A DNA stretch of 63,822 nt, counting the filler. It is 3 parts of 3 records of this genome, joined end to end, with 100 filler letters (N's around TTAATTAATTAA, not from the genome) between each part and the next. Parts side by side here need not be neighbours in the genome. Positions count along the whole stretch, not along the records: positions 1 to 25,864 come from SRR20825019_1919; 2 more parts are not named here. One strand, given 5' to 3'. A program made the translations under genes and the position numbers. Within the stretch, counting starts at the first letter, position 1; each line of letters begins with the position of its first letter. The notes beneath the pieces are model-generated. The model was not told the origin of the DNA. It did no database searches and was given only the letters and a program-made list of their open reading frames with translations. Positions 9,695-28,840 of this stretch are shown here, piece after piece.

Positions 9695-10024
9695 ATGAAT
9701 TATTCAAAAAAAATGAAATTTGAGAGTGCCCAAAAAAGGGTTGAAGCATTAAAAAGTTTTTATAAGCATGTACTGGTTTACGGTATAGTAAACATTGCAC
9801 TTTTCGTTGTTAGAGGACAGATACTTGAGTTTTTTATGAACGAATCAACAGATAAAAACTTTATTGAGTGGATAGATTGGAATATTTTAATAGTTCCTAT
9901 TTTTTGGGGAATTGGTTTGTTATTTCACGCAGCAAAAACGTTTAAATATAAGTTGAAGTTTATAAAAAACTGGGAAGAAAACCAACTAAAAAAATTCATA
10001 ACTAAAGAACAAAACGAACGCTAA
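9695..10024 (+). CDS. 2TM domain protein
   Basis: AQKRV..LKSFYKH...FWGIGLLFH...WEE. Confidence 0.85.
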   Translation: MNYSKKMKFESAQKRVEALKSFYKHVLVYGIVNIALFVVRGQILEFFMNESTDKNFIEWIDWNILIVPIFWGIGLLFHAAKTFKYKLKFIKNWEENQLKKFITKEQNER

Positions 10025-10026
10025 AA

Positions 10027-10335
10027 ATGGAAACCGAAAAGAGTTTGGCTTATTTAAGAGCAAAGAAAAAAGTAGAAACACTTAAAAGTTTTTACAGTCA
10101 TTTGGTGGTTTATTTACTAATTAATACCGCAATCATACTTGTTTCTGCGAATGTTTTTAATGATAAACCAATAAATTTTTCACACTGGAGTATGTATTTT
10201 ACCGCAATGTTTTGGGGTATAGGTTTGGTTTCACACGCACTCTATGTACTCTTTGTTATGAATTTTAAAAATAATATTTTTAAAAACTGGGAAGAGAAAA
10301 AACTAAAACAATTTCTAGAAGAAGATCAATCATAA
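10027..10335 (+). CDS. 2TM domain protein
   Basis: AKKKV..LKSFYSH...FWGIGLVSH...WEEKK. Confidence 0.85.
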   Translation: METEKSLAYLRAKKKVETLKSFYSHLVVYLLINTAIILVSANVFNDKPINFSHWSMYFTAMFWGIGLVSHALYVLFVMNFKNNIFKNWEEKKLKQFLEEDQS

Positions 10336-12343: not shown

Positions 12344-12416
12344 TGAAATATTTATGATTATTTTAGGCGTTCAAACGCTGGTTTTGCTACGTTAACAAAA
12401 GATTAACGTTTTTGAA

Positions 12417-12446
12417 AAAACCATGCACTCACATTTAAACGTAAGT
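12417..12446 (+). promoter_or_regulatory. ECF-type promoter of the DUF4331 operon
   Basis: AAAACCA-N16-CGTAAGT; the same boxes recur at 15215-15243; AAC/CGT cores are typical of ECF promoters. Confidence 0.65.
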
Positions 12447-12489
12447 ATAGCGAACAAACAAAAATAATTAATAAAAACTAACAAAAAAG

Positions 12490-13176
12490 ATGAAAAATTC
12501 AAAACTTTTTGCAGTAATCGGTGGACTGGGCATAGCCGCACTATCGGTATTTTTAATATCTGCGGATCACATTGACGCACCAGCAGTTGCAGGTACAACA
12601 GCAGATATTACAGACTTTTACGCCTTTCAAGGCGAGAACAGTAATAACTTTGTGCTAGCAGCAAATATACAAGGACTTTTGCCTCCGGGTACTCCTACAG
12701 ACCAAGCCGAATTTGATGAAACGGTTTTGATAGAATTCAATATTGACAGAAATAACGACCTTAAAGAAGATTTTGTTATTCAGGCAATAAAACGTGGTGA
12801 TTCAATGTATTTCTTTGGCCCCTCGGTTCCAGCTATGACAGGCGCACAAAGTACTATTGCTACAACTGATCCTATTAGTGTAAAAATTTCTACAAAAGAT
12901 GATGTTCAGATAACAGAAATGAATGGCATGAAATTTTTTGCGGGACCAAGAGAAGATCCTTTTTTCTTTGATTTTAACCAATACAACGCAGTGCTTTCTG
13001 GTACCGCAACAGGTTTTAACAATCCTGGGGATGATACTTTTGCAGGAACAAATGTATTGAGTATTGTTGTGGAATTTCCAAAGGCTATGTTACCAGGTGG
13101 AGCTACGGGCGTAAACCCATTTGCAGCAAGTACACCTATCTATAATGTATGGGTAGAGGCTAAAAGAAAACAATAA
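12490..13176 (+). CDS. DUF4331 family protein (N-terminal-half type), secreted
   Basis: Signal peptide; ADHIDAP, DITDFYAF, FAGPREDPFFFD, DTFAGTNVLSIVVE. Confidence 0.85.
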   Translation: MKNSKLFAVIGGLGIAALSVFLISADHIDAPAVAGTTADITDFYAFQGENSNNFVLAANIQGLLPPGTPTDQAEFDETVLIEFNIDRNNDLKEDFVIQAIKRGDSMYFFGPSVPAMTGAQSTIATTDPISVKISTKDDVQITEMNGMKFFAGPREDPFFFDFNQYNAVLSGTATGFNNPGDDTFAGTNVLSIVVEFPKAMLPGGATGVNPFAASTPIYNVWVEAKRKQ

Positions 13177-13204
13177 AAATTGCTAACACTAAAAATTTAA
13201 AAAG

Positions 13205-13831
13205 ATGAAAACATTTAAATATATATACCTTTTTGCCGCAATAACAACGTCAGTATTGTTTGTGCAATGTACCGATGATGACGATAATATAATTACGAAC
13301 CCAACTTGTACCGATGGAATTTTAAACGGTGATGAAACAGAAATTGACTGTGGCGGAACAGCTTGTGCACCTTGTGGAGAAGTAGTGGATTTTAGCGGAA
13401 CTTACATACAGGAAGACCAAATGGGGCGTCCTGGTATAAATACCGTATTTGGATCAGAAGGATTTAAAGATGCATTTAATGTTACTGTACCATCTGCAAT
13501 GCAAGTAGCTTTCCAAGCAAAATTTGAAGCAAAATTATTGGCATTGAATTCTGGATATACTACTAATGCTTTAGGTTTAACTGCAGAACAATTCACAACA
13601 GTACTTTCTAACGATGTTTTATGGTTAGCTGAAACAGGGATAACTACTTACTTTAACGGAACCGAAATATTGACTGGTAGAACCTTGAATGATGATGTGA
13701 TTGATGTATCCTTACTTTTAATTTTTGGAGGTCCTGACGGATCTGAAAATCCAACATTAACAAGTGATGGAGTGTCAGGTAATGATGCTTCGTTCTCTGC
13801 GTCATTCCCATATATGGCTGGACCATTTTAA
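13205..13831 (+). CDS. DUF4331 family lipoprotein (C-terminal-half type) with a Cys-rich module
   Basis: Lipoprotein signal FVQ-C followed by acidic TDDDD; CTDGILNGDETEIDCGGTACAPC; QMGRPGINT, GRTLNDDVID, FPY. Confidence 0.8.
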   Translation: MKTFKYIYLFAAITTSVLFVQCTDDDDNIITNPTCTDGILNGDETEIDCGGTACAPCGEVVDFSGTYIQEDQMGRPGINTVFGSEGFKDAFNVTVPSAMQVAFQAKFEAKLLALNSGYTTNALGLTAEQFTTVLSNDVLWLAETGITTYFNGTEILTGRTLNDDVIDVSLLLIFGGPDGSENPTLTSDGVSGNDASFSASFPYMAGPF

Positions 13832-13849: not shown

Positions 13850-13879
13850 AAAAAAGAGAGCGTTTCGTTCTCTTTTTTT
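13850..13879 (+). terminator. Intrinsic terminator/attenuator hairpin after the DUF4331 pair
   Basis: AAAAAAGAGAGCG-TTT-CGTTCTCTTTTTTT. Confidence 0.7.
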
Positions 13880-13929
13880 GTTTAAAATATATTTAAATGA
13901 AAAATTTGACCAACACAAATACCTTCAAA

Positions 13930-15207
13930 ATGAAAAATTTAATACCCTTATTATTTTTTGCTGTTTTTATTGGATGTCAAGAAAAGACTGAAAAAATAAC
14001 CGATAGTAAAGATTATAACCCGTATTTAATTACCACTAACAATCCTTCAAAAGAAGCACTTTTATCTGAGTTTGAATTTTGGGAGAAAAGATTCAATAAC
14101 GATTCAACTAACTTGATGGAAATGACCCGTATGTCTAGCCTTCATGCAAGAATGTTTGGAATAAACGGAACTATTTCAGAATTAAAAACTTCAGAAGAAT
14201 TAATTAAAAAGGCATACGCTGTTTCAGCACGTAATAAAGATACCTATTTGCGCAGTTTAGCACATAATTATATTTCACAACACCGTTTTAAGGAAGCAAA
14301 AGTTTTATTGGATAGCGCATATACCTATCCAGATAATCATAAAGAAACGGAGATGATGCTTTTTGATGTGGCGATGGAATTGGGCGACTATCAGCTTGCA
14401 GATACGCTGTTGGGAAAAGTAAAGGCTCCAAAAAATTTTAATTATTTAATTCGTTTGGCAAAATGGAGCGACCATAATGGAAATCTTGATGCAGCCATAA
14501 AATATATGGAACAAGCTAAAACAATTGCTGAAGCACGAAAAGACAAAAGTTTAATGGTTTGGGTTTATAGCAATATTGGCGATTTTTATGGTCATGCTGG
14601 ACGTATTCAAGATTCTTATAAAAGTTATTTGAATACATTGGCAATTCAACCAGACAACCATTATGTAAAAAAACAACTTGCATGGATGATTTATTCTCTT
14701 GAAAAAAATACCAAGGAAGCAAATCGTATTTTAGATTCCGTACAGGTAAATCATAATATACCTGATTATCATTTATTGAAAGCTGAAATGGCTGAATATG
14801 ATGGCGATATTTCTAAAGCAAACAATGAATATGAAAAATTTATAAAAGCTACAGATAATGTGGCCTATGGTGGAATGTATACTACCTACCTTATATCAAT
14901 TTATGCAGAAAAGGATCCAAAAAAAGCACTTGAATTAGCCGAAAAAGAAATTATGAATCGCGCTACACCAGAAACGTATCAATTGCTTGCATATGCCCAA
15001 TTAAAATCTGGCAATAAAGAAGTTGCTCTTAATACAATTGAAACGTTTGTTGTTGGAAAAACTTCAGAGCCTAATGCGCTTTTTCATTCAGCTTTAATAT
15101 ATAAAGCAAATGGAATGAATGCTGAGTTAAATTCATTAAAAACTGAACTGTTAGAAGCATTTTATGAATTGGGACCTTTAAAAGCAAAAGAAATAAAAAT
15201 GTTATAA
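13930..15207 (+). CDS. TPR-repeat lipoprotein
   Basis: MKNLIPLLFFAVFIG-C lipoprotein signal from ATG 13930; multiple TPR-like helices. Confidence 0.8.
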   Translation: MKNLIPLLFFAVFIGCQEKTEKITDSKDYNPYLITTNNPSKEALLSEFEFWEKRFNNDSTNLMEMTRMSSLHARMFGINGTISELKTSEELIKKAYAVSARNKDTYLRSLAHNYISQHRFKEAKVLLDSAYTYPDNHKETEMMLFDVAMELGDYQLADTLLGKVKAPKNFNYLIRLAKWSDHNGNLDAAIKYMEQAKTIAEARKDKSLMVWVYSNIGDFYGHAGRIQDSYKSYLNTLAIQPDNHYVKKQLAWMIYSLEKNTKEANRILDSVQVNHNIPDYHLLKAEMAEYDGDISKANNEYEKFIKATDNVAYGGMYTTYLISIYAEKDPKKALELAEKEIMNRATPETYQLLAYAQLKSGNKEVALNTIETFVVGKTSEPNALFHSALIYKANGMNAELNSLKTELLEAFYELGPLKAKEIKML

Positions 15208-15214
15208 CAAAATG

Positions 15215-15243
15215 AAAACCAAACTACTACTTTTTCCGTAAGT
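15215..15243 (+). promoter_or_regulatory. Second ECF-type promoter, with no protein gene downstream
   Basis: AAAACCA-N15-CGTAAGT, boxes identical to 12417-12446. Confidence 0.6.
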
Positions 15244-15247
15244 GTTA

Positions 15248-15365
15248 ATGAGGTTGGTTATCTATCGAATAATTGATAGATATTTTAAAACCGGAAATAC
15301 CGGTTTTCAGAGTTTTTTTGTTAGTTGGAGCGCCCGTCATAATTTTGATGGGCGCTACTTTTTTT
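15248..15365 (+). ncRNA. Candidate ECF-dependent small RNA (about 118 nt)
   Basis: Own promoter; hairpins TATCTATC-N8-GATAGATA (15259-15282) and AAAACCGG-AAATA-CCGGTTTT (15287-15307); unpaired TTTTTTGTTAGTT; terminator. Confidence 0.55.
15329..15365 (+). terminator. Intrinsic terminator, plus strand
   Basis: AGCGCCCGTCA-TAATTT-TGATGGGCGCT followed by ACTTTTTTT. Confidence 0.85.
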
Positions 15366-15388
15366 AATATTTTTAAAAATATATTTTC

Positions 15389-15420
15389 AAAAAAAAACTT
15401 GAGCGTGAACTCAAGTTTTT
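15389..15420 (-). terminator. Intrinsic terminator of the sigma/anti-sigma operon
   Basis: AAAAACTTGAG-CGTGAA-CTCAAGTTTTT, with an A-run that forms the minus-strand U-tract. Confidence 0.75.
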
Positions 15421-15440: not shown

Positions 15441-16238
15441 TTAAATAGTTATTGTTCCTAACGTATATAATTGTGATAGGGTAGGTATTTTACTTCCTCC
15501 AGCAGGTTCTAAAGTTATTCCAAAAGCTTCAGGATCTGGGAAATTTTCGAACTTATAAATTCCGTTTTCGCCGGCTTCATTTTCGGCAGCAATTAAACCT
15601 ACACTTGTTGGCGTAAGAGGTTCCATTTTTAACGACCATAGTTGGTAAACTTTTCCTGGAGGTGGCGTAGGTAAACCTTTAACATCTATGTAAGCTATGT
15701 TGTTTTTTTTATCTAAATACACTTTTGCATAAGCTTCAGGTGCAACAGCTTGATTTCCGGGAAGTGTATAGGTTTGGTATTCTTTAGACCTTAATACATC
15801 CAGTATTTTAGTGTTAGCTACTAATTGATTTTCAATAACATTTTTATCTTCTTTTAAAACGGTGTTTTCTGTTGAAGTTATTTGTAGTGAATTATTTAAA
15901 TCATTATTTTGTTTTAACATCCATAAGATACCACCCATAAATAGTATAGCGGCTGCCCAACCTGTAATGGCTGACCAATTAAGTGTTTTTACCTTGGTAT
16001 CACCAATATTCTTAACATATCTAATTGAGTTGAGAATGTGTGTCCATGTCATTGCTTGCACGGGAGGCGCAACATTTTCAGCAATGTGAATAAGAGATTT
16101 TTCAATTTGCTCAACTTCTCGCTTCACTTCTTCGCTATTGGCAATTGCAGCTTCCACTTCAATAACTTCTTCTTGTGGCAATGCGCCACAAACGTACATT
16201 TCTAATTTCCCTGATGCTATAATTTCTTCAGTATTCAT
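15441..16238 (-). CDS. Anti-sigma factor, RskA family
   Basis: N-terminal LEMYVCGAL domain, one TM, C-terminal LPTPPPGKVYQLW...AFGITLEPAGGS..PT. Confidence 0.9.
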   Translation of the reverse strand: MNTEEIIASGKLEMYVCGALPQEEVIEVEAAIANSEEVKREVEQIEKSLIHIAENVAPPVQAMTWTHILNSIRYVKNIGDTKVKTLNWSAITGWAAAILFMGGILWMLKQNNDLNNSLQITSTENTVLKEDKNVIENQLVANTKILDVLRSKEYQTYTLPGNQAVAPEAYAKVYLDKKNNIAYIDVKGLPTPPPGKVYQLWSLKMEPLTPTSVGLIAAENEAGENGIYKFENFPDPEAFGITLEPAGGSKIPTLSQLYTLGTITI

Positions 16239-16242
16239 AATT

Positions 16243-16776
16243 TTATCCTAGTACCATTACCCGTAATTCATTTATACAGGTTCTGTTTCTTGTTTTTAAA
16301 GTTCCTAAAGGTATCTCAAGTGTTTTTGATGCTTCCGCTTGTGTATATCCTTTAAAATATAAAAGGTCAATTATTTTTATACATGCTGGTTTTAAGGCAT
16401 CTACAAATTTTTTGAGACCAATTGCATTTGTTTTTGTGTTTAAGCTATCTGAGGATGATAGTATATCTACGAAGTTTGTGGTGCTTAGGTTTTTTTTAGT
16501 GTTTTTAAATGCTTTTGACCTAGTTTGATCTATAGCTGTATTTCTTGCAATGTTTAATAGCCAAGTAAAAAACCGTCCTTTATTTACAGCATAAGAGCCG
16601 GAATTATTCCATACCTTTATGAATACGTCTTGTAGCACTTCTTCAGCAACACTTTCATCTAGTACAATACTGTATATTATTCCATAAATAGCTTCACTAT
16701 ACATGGTGTATATGCGGGAAAAGGCTTTCTCATTCCCGTTTTGCATCGCTATGATGAGATCATTGGGTTGTTCCAT
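16243..16776 (-). CDS. ECF sigma factor (SigK-like, RskA-coupled)
   Basis: AEEVLQDVFIKVW, FFTWLLNIARNTAID, YFKGYTQAE...IPLGTLKTR. Confidence 0.92.
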   Translation of the reverse strand: MEQPNDLIIAMQNGNEKAFSRIYTMYSEAIYGIIYSIVLDESVAEEVLQDVFIKVWNNSGSYAVNKGRFFTWLLNIARNTAIDQTRSKAFKNTKKNLSTTNFVDILSSSDSLNTKTNAIGLKKFVDALKPACIKIIDLLYFKGYTQAEASKTLEIPLGTLKTRNRTCINELRVMVLG

Positions 16777-20378: not shown

Positions 20379-21679
20379 TGCGCACGGTAAAGAAATATCC
20401 TTTTTCTTTAACCGAAGATTCTAAAAAACGTTTCCTTCATTGGGCACAGCAGTTTGATGAGGTTGTGTGGCTGGATGGTAACAACTACCCGCAGGCACAT
20501 CAAACTTATCAGGCAATTCTTGCTGTAGATGCTTTTACAGCTTTTAAAACCGACGCTCACAATGCTTTCAATAAATTAGAAGAATATCAAAAAACAACTG
20601 CAGATTGGCTTTTTGGATATCTTTCCTACGATCTTAAAAATGATGTAGAAAAGCTTCAGTCCAATAATTTTGATGGATTAAATTTTCCAGATCTGTATTT
20701 TTTCCAACCTAAAAGATTGTTTCTTTTTTCTGAAACACATATCGAAATTCATTATTTAAATTTCGTTGCAGATGAACTTGAAGAAGATTGGAAATTAATT
20801 TCAGAACTTATTTATCAATCTCATACAAATGAAGGTGCCAACAATGTGAAAATTCATATTCGAACTTCAAAAGACAGCTATATTCAAAAAGTAAACGAAA
20901 CGCTTGAACATATAAAGCGTGGTGATATTTACGAAGCAAATATTTGTCAGGAATTTTATTCGGAAACGCACTCTATCAATCCTTTGGATGCTTTTTTTCA
21001 TCTTAATGAAATTTCAAAACCACCTTTTTCTGTTTTTTTGAAGTTGGATAAACGCTTTGCACTCTCTGCCTCTCCAGAACGATATCTAAAAAAAACAGGG
21101 AATACGGTTATTTCTCAACCCATAAAAGGTACCGCCAAACGTCTTGAAAATAAAGAAGAAGATTTAAAAATGGCGCAGCAGTTGGCCGCAGATCCTAAAG
21201 AGCGTAGCGAGAATATTATGATAACAGATTTGGTGCGAAACGATCTTTCTCGAATTGCCGAAAAAGGAACTGTAAAAGTTGAAGAACTTTGCGGTATTTA
21301 TTCTTTTGCGCAAGTACATCAAATGATTTCTACCATTTCATGCACTGTTCCTAAAGATATTTCTAGCGTAGCTATTATAAAAAATACATTCCCAATGGGA
21401 AGTATGACTGGTGCTCCAAAAATTTCTGCAATGCAAATTATTGAGAAAATAGAAGATGCGAAGCGCGGATTATATAGTGGCGCAATTGGCTATTTTTCAC
21501 CTTCTGGCGATTTCGATTTTAATGTAGTTATTCGTAGTATTCTGTATAATGCAACTAATAATTATATTAGTTTTTCCGTGGGAAGTGCCATTACCATTAA
21601 TTCTATTCCCGAAAAAGAATATGAAGAATGTTTGCTTAAAGCAAAAGCAATGCGAGAAGTATTAAATTCAATTTATTAG
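20378..21679 (+). CDS. pabB: Aminodeoxychorismate synthase component I (anthranilate synthase component I family)
   Basis: SASPERY, PIKGT, KERSENIMITDLVRNDL, FPMGSMTGAPK, RGLYSGAIG. Confidence 0.85.
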   Translation: MRTVKKYPFSLTEDSKKRFLHWAQQFDEVVWLDGNNYPQAHQTYQAILAVDAFTAFKTDAHNAFNKLEEYQKTTADWLFGYLSYDLKNDVEKLQSNNFDGLNFPDLYFFQPKRLFLFSETHIEIHYLNFVADELEEDWKLISELIYQSHTNEGANNVKIHIRTSKDSYIQKVNETLEHIKRGDIYEANICQEFYSETHSINPLDAFFHLNEISKPPFSVFLKLDKRFALSASPERYLKKTGNTVISQPIKGTAKRLENKEEDLKMAQQLAADPKERSENIMITDLVRNDLSRIAEKGTVKVEELCGIYSFAQVHQMISTISCTVPKDISSVAIIKNTFPMGSMTGAPKISAMQIIEKIEDAKRGLYSGAIGYFSPSGDFDFNVVIRSILYNATNNYISFSVGSAITINSIPEKEYEECLLKAKAMREVLNSIY

Positions 21680-25864: not shown

Positions 25865-25964
25865 NNNNNNNNNNNNNNNNNNNNNNNNNNNNNNNNNNNN
25901 NNNNNNNNTTAATTAATTAANNNNNNNNNNNNNNNNNNNNNNNNNNNNNNNNNNNNNNNNNNNN
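25865..25964. other. Artificial contig spacer
   Basis: N44-TTAATTAATTAA-N44 (stops in all six frames); base composition changes abruptly across it. Confidence 0.98.
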
Positions 25965-28840
25965 CCCCCCCCCCCCCCCCCCCCCCCTCCGCACCCGGTC
26001 TCAGTAAGCTCACCGTGCCTGTCCTTCCACCCCACAGAGCTGCGGAAAGCAGAGCCAATACAAGCACCAAATTGAAAACGAAATTAGGGACCGCATCAAG
26101 GAGCTGGAGATTCTTGACAATATTCAGAAACGCGACGCCATCCCAGCTCTGCGTGCCGAAGTCTCTGGCGATGTGGGCGTCGGTAAAGAAAATTCCGAGG
26201 CATGAAAATTTTCGGCGGAATCCCAGGGGGAGCCGGGGCGCCAGTGCAAAACACTACCCTGCCAAAGCAAACCGTTGAATCTGGAGGATAATTTCATCGG
26301 CAAGTCAGGTATTGCAGGTGTTCTTTTAGTCACTGGACTTGCGTACGTGCACCATGTGGACGTTCCCAAAGACTTCGTTGAAATTTTCCGACGGGCCGGC
26401 AACTTCTTTAAGGTCACCTTCCATCTGCATGCCAACGAGTCAGCCCCCACTCCAAAAAGAGAGACTGAAACGGTATAAAAATATGACAGGATGCTCACCA
26501 CATTCAACTTCTCGTCGTTTGTCAAGGTCATGTCGCCGCAGTGGCTCGAATCGATCTGGCTCCGGAGACTGCTCTGGATGTCACTAACCCGCGTACCATC
26601 CGAGACCTTCTCCCACAAGACACATTGAGTGGTCTGGCCCTCGGTGATAACAAATGGACGCTTCCCCTTGATATCTCCGTCGCACGAGCACAGCCTCCTG
26701 TCGTGCTCAGCTGCGCTCTTGCATTCAAAGTAGTCTTCCGCAACTTCTGTCATCTCCGCGAAGGGGTCGTCGTCGTCGCCGTCATCAGAATACTGCACTT
26801 GGTTAGCAAGACTCTCCATTCCCCACGACGCCGGCACCTACATCCTCCATGCACCAACAGCACTTGCCGCTCAACACGCACGCATTGCCCTCGCGGAAAT
26901 GCGAGCAAGACTCCTCAATAGCGCGGGCGGCCTCCCTCACATGCTCCTCCGCCTTTTCATCCTCCCAGATGACCGCCTCGAGGTCATCTCCCAAATCGTT
27001 AACCCAGCCCTGGGGCTCGTCATCCTTCACCGTCGTCATGACTTTTTTACTCCGCGAGCCTGCCAAGCAAGGAGTTAGCCATCCGGTGGTTCGGGAGCAC
27101 ACCGCAACAACCAACGTACCCAGCTGCAACTTGTACGGCCCGTCGATGGCGCAGGTGCTCTTGGCCAGCGCGTTTCTGATCGATGACACCAGGCTCATGC
27201 CCCCCTCCTCGACGACTGTTAGCGAGCACTGCGTGACCAACCTCAGGTCTGATAAGAACACACAATGTCAGCTTGTAGCGACACGAGCACGGGCACGCCC
27301 ACACACCATGTAGCTTCTTCACGAGCACCCGGACATTCTCGCGTTTCTTTGCGGTTGACTCGCCGCTTGCCTCCTCGTGTGCGACCTCGCGTGAGGATTG
27401 CACCTTCACAAACTGCAATGCATCAGAACCTCTATCATCAAGCGCCGCCGGCGTGCACAACCCACCCCAATCAGCTGCATGGCGAGCGTGTTGGCCCCGT
27501 CCACCTTGGTGAAGACCACCTTCTCAGCGACGCACTCTCCGGCGTTCTTCATCGCAATGCCTTCTCTCCCTGCGCAAGGATATGTCAGGAGGGCCCATCC
27601 CCACCACCACAACACAAGATGCGTACGCTCGGTGCCTCCAATCGTATCGCAGGGACATGCTACCGGCAGCTTCTTCACTTTTTGAAGGACCAAGTCCTTG
27701 GCAGCCGCGCATCCAGTCTTGCCGTCCATCGTGACCTTCACGGTGCAAATCTTATCCCCGTCCTCAGTGAACACGTCGACACTCTGCAAGCATCCAACTC
27801 AGGCACGCCCGGTCCACTTATGCTCGGGTCACTCACGACATCGCCGGCGGATTCATCCACCGCAGGAGCAGCCGCGGCGCTTGTTGCCGGCTCCAAGTCC
27901 TCATGGTTGCCCGACTCGTGTACCAGGCCTCCGTCCGACTCTCCATGGCTGACGTGCTGGGCAGCTGGGGAGTATTGCAAGTAATACTCATTCTCGCCAA
28001 GGCCAACGAGGACACCGCCACGCACGCGGTTCCTGTTGACAAAATCAGCGCAAGTCCACAGACATGACCCTCCCCACAACAAAAGCAGTACTTGTTGTTC
28101 ACGGGCTCAATTGAACCCATCGACACGTCCGGGCACGAGGAGCGGACCATGTCCTCAATCTCACTAAGGAGAAGAGCGGGCACAGTCTCCTCCTTGCCCT
28201 GGCACTGGGTCGTCTCGCCGCCTCCACTCTTCTTCAGGTAAAACTTGGCTATATCACAACAGTGAGCCCCCCATTGCCATATCACAGACCCCCTCCCCAC
28301 CCGTCACCTACGTGTGGATTTCGTCGCTGTCAAAGGTAGCTTCATCTTCTCTTCTATCCATTCTATCTGCTCCCTCAACTTGTCGCGGTTCAAGTCCACG
28401 GAACTGGAAAGATCGCGGGAAAGCTCGTTGATTTTCTCTTCCAGCTGACCAAGGTCGGCGGTCTCCCCTAACTCTTCGGAAGCCGGAGCGGTGGCTTCGG
28501 CTCCGTCCTTTTCAGCGTCAACTGGCTTGAGGGCCTCGTGCTTGGGCTCGACGCCCACCCCTCCCGATTCAGCTTTATCTCCGTCCTTTTCTGCTGCAAT
28601 AGGCTCGAGGACCTCGTGCTTCGGCTCGTTTACCACCCCTCCAGAGCCAGCTTCGTCTCCATCCTTCTCGGCCGGAACAACATCTCCCTTCTCTTTGGGA
28701 GTGCTGTCGGCTATCGACCTTTCTGTTCCAGTGCTGCCGCCCCTTGCTCTGGCAGTGTCTAACGACGTTGCAAGCGCCCCAGCACACAGCAGCCACACCA
28801 GCAGGACCACTCCCGTGGCCCTCGCCGCCGAACAGCGCAT
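25965..28840 (-). CDS. Multi-exon eukaryotic gene for a signal-peptide, membrane-anchored protein of unknown function (3' truncated)
   Basis: ATG 28840 MRCSAARATGVVLLVWLLCAGALA; minus-strand ORF pieces joined by short GT-AG introns; TM FVFNLVLVLALLSAALW near 26050. Exon limits approximate. Confidence 0.55.
28495..28675 (-). repeat. Coding tandem repeat, 26 aa (78 bp), about 2.3 copies
   Basis: AEKDGDEAGSGGVVNEPKHEVLEPIA / AEKDGDKAESGGVGVEPKHEALKPVD / AEKDG. Confidence 0.75.

Follow-up and report, generated by a model that had tools for sequence, protein, structure and literature searches.

The interval between a TPR gene and the convergent gene of an RskA-like anti-sigma factor probably harbours a real small regulatory RNA gene, located beside a stress sigma factor and conserved in marine flavobacteria. 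We give somewhat better than even chances to a reading in which this sRNA is driven by the adjacent sigma factor, is embedded in the 3'UTR of the preceding operon, and would block the translation start region of a START_2 gene and, variably among lineages, those of its own operon. A full-text literature search, with most subscription journals outside its reach, found no paper on this sRNA.

The window, i.e., the whole stretch of DNA analysed (63,822 nt), is made of unrelated contigs joined together, with N runs and a jump in GC content from 32% to ~55% at ~25865-25990. The contig hosting the locus is its first ~26 kb, the N run near 25865 marking the contig end, and among the genomes of the collection Aequorivita sp. 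Q41 is closest to it (TPR 95%). Two DUF4331 genes and a TPR gene are followed by the convergent genes of an anti-sigma factor resembling RskA and of a SigK-like ECF sigma factor:

12490..13176, plus strand: DUF4331 protein a (PF14224, 83.7 bits)
13205..13831, plus strand: DUF4331 protein b (PF14224, 43.6 bits)
13850..13879, plus strand: hairpin and U-run separating DUF4331b from TPR (sequence inspection; comparable hairpins in orthologues)
13897..15207, plus strand: TPR protein, with the sRNA inside its 3'UTR (gene call and profile search)
15389..15420, minus strand: rskA terminator, a hairpin at ~15389-15420, separate from the sRNA terminator
15441..16238, minus strand: RskA-like anti-sigma factor (PF10099, 67.2 bits; NF052375, 100.5 bits against a cut-off of 100)
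16243..16776, minus strand: SigK-like sigma factor of the ECF type, carrying two Cys in its region 4 (best model SigK NF007228, 113 bits)

The score of the sigma factor against NF007228 compares with a curated cut-off of 226 bits and makes it SigK-like only. By context, having an RskA-like anti-sigma at +1 and DUF4331 nearby, it probably belongs to ECF214, a Bacteroidetes ECF group described with an RskA-like anti-sigma at +1 and with DUF4331 listed in the context of its subgroup s1 (PMC7826278). The part of PMC7826278 that deals with this group defines no group promoter consensus and does not mention an sRNA, whereas here a consensus, AAACC-N16-CGTA, is derived from comparative data and an sRNA is associated with the sigma factor. 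The signal would be oxidative or thiol stress, because SodC adjoins the sigma gene in distant loci and region 4 carries two Cys, a pair of the kind that acts as redox sensor in SigK (PMC7826278). The hairpin at 13850-13879 is likely a partial terminator by which the ratio of DUF4331 to TPR would be set. A near-palindrome (GTTAAC-AAAAGA-TTAAC, 12388-12409), conserved in orthologous leaders, lies a short way upstream of the DUF4331 -35 box, where the LETM1-like and DUF4331 genes diverge, and is a possible regulator site.

The predicted sRNA, whose 5' end would lie at 15247-15251, comprises the following parts:

15248..15365, plus strand: predicted sRNA, ~115 nt (102 bits with model R1, which was partly built from this sequence)
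15250..15259, plus strand: 5' conserved motif GAGGUUGGUU
15259..15282, plus strand: hairpin 1, with two-sided changes at 7/7 pairs
15287..15307, plus strand: hairpin 2, from the fold, with two-sided changes at 5/8 pairs in the plain alignment and 0/8 in the model-fitted one
15308..15328, plus strand: seed arm CAGAGUUUUUUUGUUAGUUGG, mostly unpaired, with the invariant core UUUUUGUUAG at 15315-15324
15329..15365, plus strand: intrinsic terminator common to sRNA and operon, with two-sided changes at 9/9 pairs in the model-fitted alignment and 5/9 in the plain one

Folding of 15247-15368 yields two hairpins, an unpaired stretch at 15308-15328 and the terminator (z = -5.5; 0/200 shuffles equally stable), which confirms the architecture proposed in the preliminary description, including a terminator distinct from that of rskA. 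The 5' motif (GGUUGGUU) is unpaired in the window and stem-paired in several other genera, where it forms part of an extended hairpin 1. The unpaired arm, UCAGAGUUUUUUUGUUAGUU, is near-invariant: in 40 aligned rows, chosen for having the seed, its core is the same in 40/40, UCAGAG is nearly so and the stems vary, the median unpaired probability of the core being 0.75 (n=52 sequences). Covariation reaches 0.248 in the plain alignment and 0.528 in the model-fitted one, which is biased toward the structure; 0/500 shuffles attain these values, slid controls stay at or below 0.117 and 0.146, and the signal is good for hairpin 1 and the terminator and weaker for hairpin 2. The element combines a conserved structure with a terminator of its own and a conserved seed left unpaired.

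An alignment of relatives, proposed at the outset as a check, bears out the conservation of promoter box and seed as well as hairpin covariation: among 78 related loci found through the TPR protein, 54 carry box and seed 3' of the TPR stop, in addition to the window. In a 121-genome family sample, RskA is detected in 59 genomes; 22 genomes show the promoter-plus-seed pattern, which lies beside rskA in 17 of these, while the reversed control gives a single hit; box and seed are also present in 7/39 distant rskA loci, and an order-wide model search of 151 genomes (best 24 candidates scored in each) gave a true match only in G001. The sRNA appears to be single-copy, with one strong copy per genome and no strong paralogue in five genomes (best 150 candidates scored in each). 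Rfam 15 returned no match over 15215-15365 at E <= 10, and only sub-threshold matches at 10 homologous or related loci. In G326 (L017:7245-7368), close to the end of the contig, the sRNA is interrupted past its 5' motif, where unrelated sequence takes over.

The preliminary description had pointed to two copies of one motif, AAAACCA-N16-CGTAAGT at 12417-12446 and AAAACCA-N15-CGTAAGT at 15215-15243. Both are present and are the only AAAACCA-N15/16-CGTAAGT sites in the whole 63.8-kb window, against ~0.0007 expected in the 26-kb host contig for a motif picked post hoc. Reduced to its core, the box occurs at three positions of the locus:

12418..12443, plus strand: AAACC-N17-CGTA, the ECF-type promoter box that serves the DUF4331 operon, also seen by eye, uncounted, in most orthologous leaders
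15216..15240, plus strand: sRNA promoter box AAACC-N16-CGTA, with a fixed spacer across elements
16468..16492, minus strand: internal AAACC-N16-CGTA box within the sigma coding sequence, ~230 nt ahead of rskA, under synonymous freeze

The internal box is present in 91/100 distinct sigma genes, and the codons spelling it are frozen (AAC 97/99, TTC 98/99, GTA 99/99), as compared with frequencies of 0.42, 0.19 and 0.40 for the same codons elsewhere in the same genes; such a box would raise rskA alone, a negative feedback. Outside the locus, 23 of the 27 loci parsed, out of 30 fetched, have the box ahead of the first gene of the TIGR04169/ArsS arsenosugar operon. Copies seen in single genomes stand ahead of DUF547, of a TIGR04283 glycosyltransferase gene, of a PiT-like transporter gene, of msrB and of a TonB-receptor unit. 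The arsenosugar cluster (TIGR04169, ArsS, TIGR04282/04283, ArsM, DUF547, PiT-like; L128:12130-14895, L131:8540-16924, L302-L331) contains as many as four copies of the ECF box. Genome-wide, the promoter pattern shows no enrichment over its reversed control, so the argument rests on position: copies upstream of DUF4331 and of the arsenosugar operon, together with the one spelled by frozen codons inside the sigma gene ahead of rskA, tie the box to the SigK-like sigma. The early suggestion of a promoter belonging to the adjacent sigma/RskA pair is therefore upheld, and the sRNA has a conserved promoter of its cognate ECF sigma factor upstream.

No terminator was found between the TPR stop (15207) and the sRNA, so the latter is also the 3'UTR of the operon and shares its terminator, a location of the OppZ/CarZ type. 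Read with nine distant operons that have a G/U tract and no second promoter, this would equally suit a structured operon 3'UTR with no separate RNA, the downstream box being non-functional or a read-through relic. We regard such a situation as very improbable: the spacer of the sRNA box is 16 nt in 54/55 elements (window included) although its letters vary freely, the box is kept when the sRNA follows different upstream genes (TPR, DUF4331b, TonB receptor or LytTR regulator), and the hairpin upstream of TPR would limit read-through. In 8/9 of the distant operons a G/U tract comes before the terminator, as opposed to 1/89 background hairpins of terminator type taken from 400 kb of a single genome (with windows of at most 30 nt and of 25 nt), which rules out a generic terminator feature. 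The retention of the tract in promoterless operons suggests two forms of the element, a 3'UTR form and a promoter-bearing form; here the sRNA's own promoter argues for primary transcription, while promoterless forms would need processing.

A wobble-tolerant scan of 26 genomes for complements of the arm yielded 55 rows, four of which were the same START_2 gene; in a looser scan of 10 genomes, START_2 was found in 7 among the matches listed, other recurring rows lying within coding sequence by eye. The gene encodes a START_2 (PF19569) protein and is followed by a class IV aminotransferase gene. One relative of the protein, 2lio, is solved and has no assigned function, and PMC13525633, searched by term, does not mention a Bacteroidota START_2. 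The leader is ~16 nt long and lies directly downstream of a TATATTGG box. The host's START_2 gene being outside the window, all counts come from relatives' genomes; they exclude discovery genomes, and G326, an incomplete assembly whose START_2 leader lacks CTAAC, is in neither group. CTAAC occurs within 24 nt of the START_2 ATG in 18/23 genomes with the canonical arm, in 3/24 genomes in which no arm was found and in 4/327 background genes (Fisher p = 6.5e-6 for arm presence, uncorrected for kinship; the arm-bearing genomes are mostly one clade), and in 0/5 close relatives lacking the arm (START_2 at least 80% identical). Its distance to the ATG is 8 nt in 10/18, and CT precedes the START_2 ATG in 11/23 versus 24/327 background genes, both of which match the geometry of the arm.

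G295 shows a change on both sides: a variant arm, GUUGGUUG, faces a variant leader, CAACCAA (rank 1 among 327). The G234 arm pairs with the START_2 leader via G-U wobbles. In the nearest genome, START_2 has an accessibility-corrected energy of -14.6 against a background minimum of -11.4, and a cognate test on 16 START_2 leaders, one of them from a discovery genome, gives p = 0.0026; since START_2 was found by scanning for arm complements, shuffle controls are post hoc. Several genomes depart from the pattern: CTAAC is kept without an arm in G315, G320 and G322, the START_2 leaders of the armless G313 and G314 still pair at ~-20, and the arm variants of G269, G277, G306 and G307 show no pairing with their own START_2 leaders. 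CTAAC lies approximately at the predicted START_2 transcript start and could be kept for initiation. The best reading of these data is that the START_2 leader is the main and better conserved predicted target, DUF4331 being secondary, and arm invariance is better explained by this leader, outside the window, than by DUF4331.

Tracts related to the arm also occur elsewhere. A similar GGUUAGUU tract precedes the terminators of other genes, and (UU)GGUU(G/A)GUUAGUU lies directly before those of hsp20, clpB-like, dnaK-like, acyl-CoA dehydrogenase and basic-tail genes; the clpB, dnaK, uvrA, acyl-CoA dehydrogenase and PL-I-like labels are presumptive assignments made from translations. Hfq-bound terminators are preceded by a U-rich tract. 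The G/U tract and terminator could likewise be a protein-binding module (of RRM/RbpB type, or an analogue of the Hfq U-rich tract) that titrates a protein, recruits one or makes the 3' end more stable, with leader complementarity as a by-product of composition. Several observations fit this idea: the related tracts before hsp20 and other terminators do not pair with the leaders of those genes, no exact, near-exact or long ungapped trans complement of the arm is conserved in 44 genomes, and shuffled arms pair equally well with the average start region (54/60), a result that also disposes of the arm as a general antisense to the start regions of all genes. In Bacteroides, RbpB binds single-stranded sRNA regions, as far as PMC11697453 describes it. 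A protein-binding module is nevertheless unlikely, as it leaves unexplained why CTAAC, its spacing and the CT before the ATG are kept in START_2 mainly where the arm exists, as well as the two-sided change in G295, and the shared tract, at 7-10 nt, is shorter than the 20-nt arm. Genes with signal peptides are not enriched among the top predictions (9/33 versus 82/327).

Pairing with the sRNA's own operon is the second line of evidence. As reported in the preliminary description, the segment 15314-15326 matches exactly, as reverse complement, the stretch 12476-12488, which ends 1 nt ahead of the DUF4331a ATG (12490). Another 13-nt match to the sRNA region, a direct one, exists in the window at 20664, so that a single 13-mer is in itself not rare; a perfect complement to the arm of more than 10 nt is found in 0/327 background start regions (-30 to +15 around the ATG). 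Two start regions are candidate targets in the window:

12476..12495, plus strand: DUF4331a start region, with a 13-nt perfect arm complement and possible extra pairing over the AUG; predicted secondary, lineage-variable target
13175..13219, plus strand: DUF4331b start region, a weaker candidate target (net -10.1; shuffled arms are equally good against ATGAAA genes)

Corrected for accessibility, DUF4331a reaches a net -13.0 kcal/mol, whereas no background region (n=109) goes below -11.4. Both DUF4331 start regions of the window outrank all 327 background regions, DUF4331a being rank 1; over all loci, the latter has a median at the 6th percentile and falls in the top 5% in 22/53. Plain shuffled arms never match this ranking (0/40), and U-run-preserving control arms are borderline (4-19/100 as good by energy, 7-40/100 by rank). 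The perfect 13-nt match is present in 2/53 loci, with a central mismatch in most Aequorivita and further divergence in other genera. Each arm pairs better with the start regions of its own operon than with those of others (-1.51 kcal/mol, p = 0.0018, 20 non-independent lineages; p = 0.013 without the window and G295), compared with -0.48 +/- 0.35 for same-genome control genes; a small cognate advantage is also seen for non-operon genes (-0.51, p = 0.017, few control genes). A long DUF4331b duplex (-23.6) is formed in G295, and the variant arm of G269 pairs with that genome's own TPR and TonB-receptor leaders. In the latter genome (L334:5085-8622), both leaders are AAC(A)-repeat tracts matching that variant arm.

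Own-operon pairing is thus a modest, statistically detectable signal. It could be held that the sRNA mainly damps its own DUF4331 operon by feedback of the OppZ/CarZ kind, the START_2 match being incidental. This is what the rank of the DUF4331 starts in the window would predict, as would the showing of DUF4331a across loci when set against rskA (top 5% in 0/49), the cognate advantage above same-genome controls, the G295 and G269 pairings, and the G/U tract that 8/9 promoterless operons keep in their 3'UTR (1/89 in background). We find it improbable, given that the arm is invariant while the leader drifts, that U-run-preserving controls are borderline, that non-operon genes share in the cognate advantage, and that G234 and G305 keep the sRNA without a PF14224 match, in genomes that may be incomplete. 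Of the initial proposal of a damping feedback, what stands is an aggregate pairing above chance over 20 lineages; as the site-level match is rare and the sRNA persists without DUF4331, feedback on DUF4331 is plausible and cannot be the sole function. Besides rskA, three other candidates were rejected: LETM1 (top 5% in 2/53 loci), the TIGR04169 peroxidase (0/27) and the 5' motif as a seed for DUF4331a (0/48). Among host-contig genes, the start region of a 2TM-domain gene (10027; region 9997-10041) has the lowest raw duplex energy, -20.1, partly via hairpin-2 bases.

The preferred reading, with START_2 as main target and the own operon as secondary, can be laid out as a mechanism. Conservation, structure, promoter-sigma link and complementarity are established by computation; from them we infer transcription, the 5' end, the signal, in vivo pairing and the direction of regulation. 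Upon release by RskA, the adjacent SigK-like sigma would turn on the DUF4331-TPR operon, the arsenosugar operon, rskA (from the internal promoter) and the ~115-nt sRNA, the latter transcribed from its own promoter just past the TPR stop up to the terminator common with the operon. The sRNA would be the repressive arm of the regulon, its unpaired U/G arm pairing with A/C-rich start regions devoid of a Shine-Dalgarno sequence. In the predicted duplex, GUUAG would sit on CUAAC, ~13 to 9 nt ahead of the AUG, U7 would cover the A-run, AG would match the CU that adjoins the AUG, and CA-UUUU would face UG-RRRR, leaving a single G opposite the A of the AUG; the 3' U-run of hairpin 2 is also predicted to be able to pair over the target AUG. 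Ribosome loading would be blocked by this duplex, the ~16-nt leader of START_2, the most conserved target, being fully covered, and start regions of the own operon (in the window that of DUF4331a, elsewhere those of different cistrons depending on the lineage) would provide feedback as secondary targets.

MicA, RybB, MicL and DapZ are further sRNAs with which the element was compared, and the promoters of MicL and DapZ lie at a gene's 3' end, as here. GcvB, an Hfq-dependent enterobacterial sRNA with many transporter targets, binds C/A-rich translation enhancers through a G/U-rich seed. The likeness consists in a G/U-rich unpaired seed facing C/A-rich leader elements, no sequence relation being claimed. 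OppZ and CarZ, the autoregulatory 3'UTR sRNAs of Vibrio cholerae as presented in PMC7398697, share the location in an operon 3'UTR, the common terminator and the pairing with starts of the own operon, which is predicted here; they are cut out by RNase E, whereas the present sRNA is served in many lineages by a sigma-dependent promoter of its own, the predicted target with the best conservation lies outside the operon and there is no Shine-Dalgarno sequence to occlude. The sigmaE sRNAs of Salmonella (PMC1804206) and FoxJ of Fusobacterium (PMC11005410) are, in the accounts consulted, the repressive arm of an ECF regulon, as is proposed here, but the sigma factor here is of an RskA-type group, in another phylum, and the sRNA sequence is another; unlike for the sigmaE sRNAs, we predict as targets a cytoplasmic START_2 protein and genes of the regulon rather than porins.

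Closer in taxonomy, GibS/FopS of Bacteroides thetaiotaomicron, going by the descriptions in PMC7366714 and PMC11697453, also pair through a long single-stranded seed around the start codons of mRNAs without a Shine-Dalgarno sequence, and FopS-10 blocks initiation on susC (PMC11697453). By its description, FopS is multicopy, 5'-seeded and under the housekeeping sigma (PMC11697453), in contrast to the present sRNA, which is single-copy, has its seed beside the terminator, carries an ECF box, has no Rfam match and hence falls outside the FopS/GibS family. Rfp11 of Flavobacterium psychrophilum is likewise a putative flavobacterial sRNA with an ECF-type promoter bearing a CGT -10 box (SM6; PMC9723704); the SM6 genes given in that paper belong to secretion systems and to Band-7, with neither DUF4331 nor arsenosugar genes among them, and the comparison is by description only. 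In its proposed action the sRNA is like the sigmaE-arm sRNAs and OppZ/CarZ, and it belongs to none of the compared families.

In the literature compared, worked-out sRNA-target pairs of Bacteroidota come from gut Bacteroides, and the sRNA described here is marine-flavobacterial. For it we can name a sigma factor, derive a promoter consensus and a regulon, and specify a predicted duplex that includes a natural compensatory variant. To our knowledge, the phylum Bacteroidota is reported to lack Hfq, and sRNA repression of a Shine-Dalgarno-less mRNA in such a phylum becomes testable by two point mutations. An uncharacterised RskA-type sigma is further linked to the arsenosugar operon, and the START_2 protein is predicted to be under stress control.

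A broader, speculative generalisation, which we consider rather unlikely, is a family-wide, Hfq-independent anti-leader code in Flavobacteriaceae. Under such a code, 3'-end RNAs of several stress transcripts (this sigma operon, hsp20, clpB-like, dnaK-like and the basic-tail gene) would have a UUGGUUAGUU-type seed in common and cover AAC(U/C)AAC and the AUG of Shine-Dalgarno-less mRNAs; the present sRNA would be the version that acquired a sigma promoter for itself, while START_2 would serve several of them as a hub target. Pairing of the hsp20 and basic-tail-gene 3'UTRs with their own leaders was rejected.

Some minor observations concern these tracts. The hsp20 3'UTR (L191:1985-2049, L193) is highly conserved and ends in UUUGGUUAGUUAGUU and a terminator, with antisense rows in 5/5 genomes; it is a candidate 3'-derived sRNA. 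The basic-tail gene, whose tail is of low complexity, has a conserved 3'UTR, UUUUUGGUUGGUUAGUU (~1500-1610 in L285, L287, L290 and L300; also L296, L194, L199), and in 4/121 genomes an AAC-N17-CGTA box lies 63-68 nt upstream of it, inside the coding tail, possibly a second promoter-bearing form or a chance occurrence in low-complexity sequence. Finally, in 9 Aequorivita genomes (L164, L165, L177 and others), codons 3-6 of a gene that we take to encode a BlaI/CopY-like repressor contain 11-12 nt complementary to the arm, which may reflect coding constraint.
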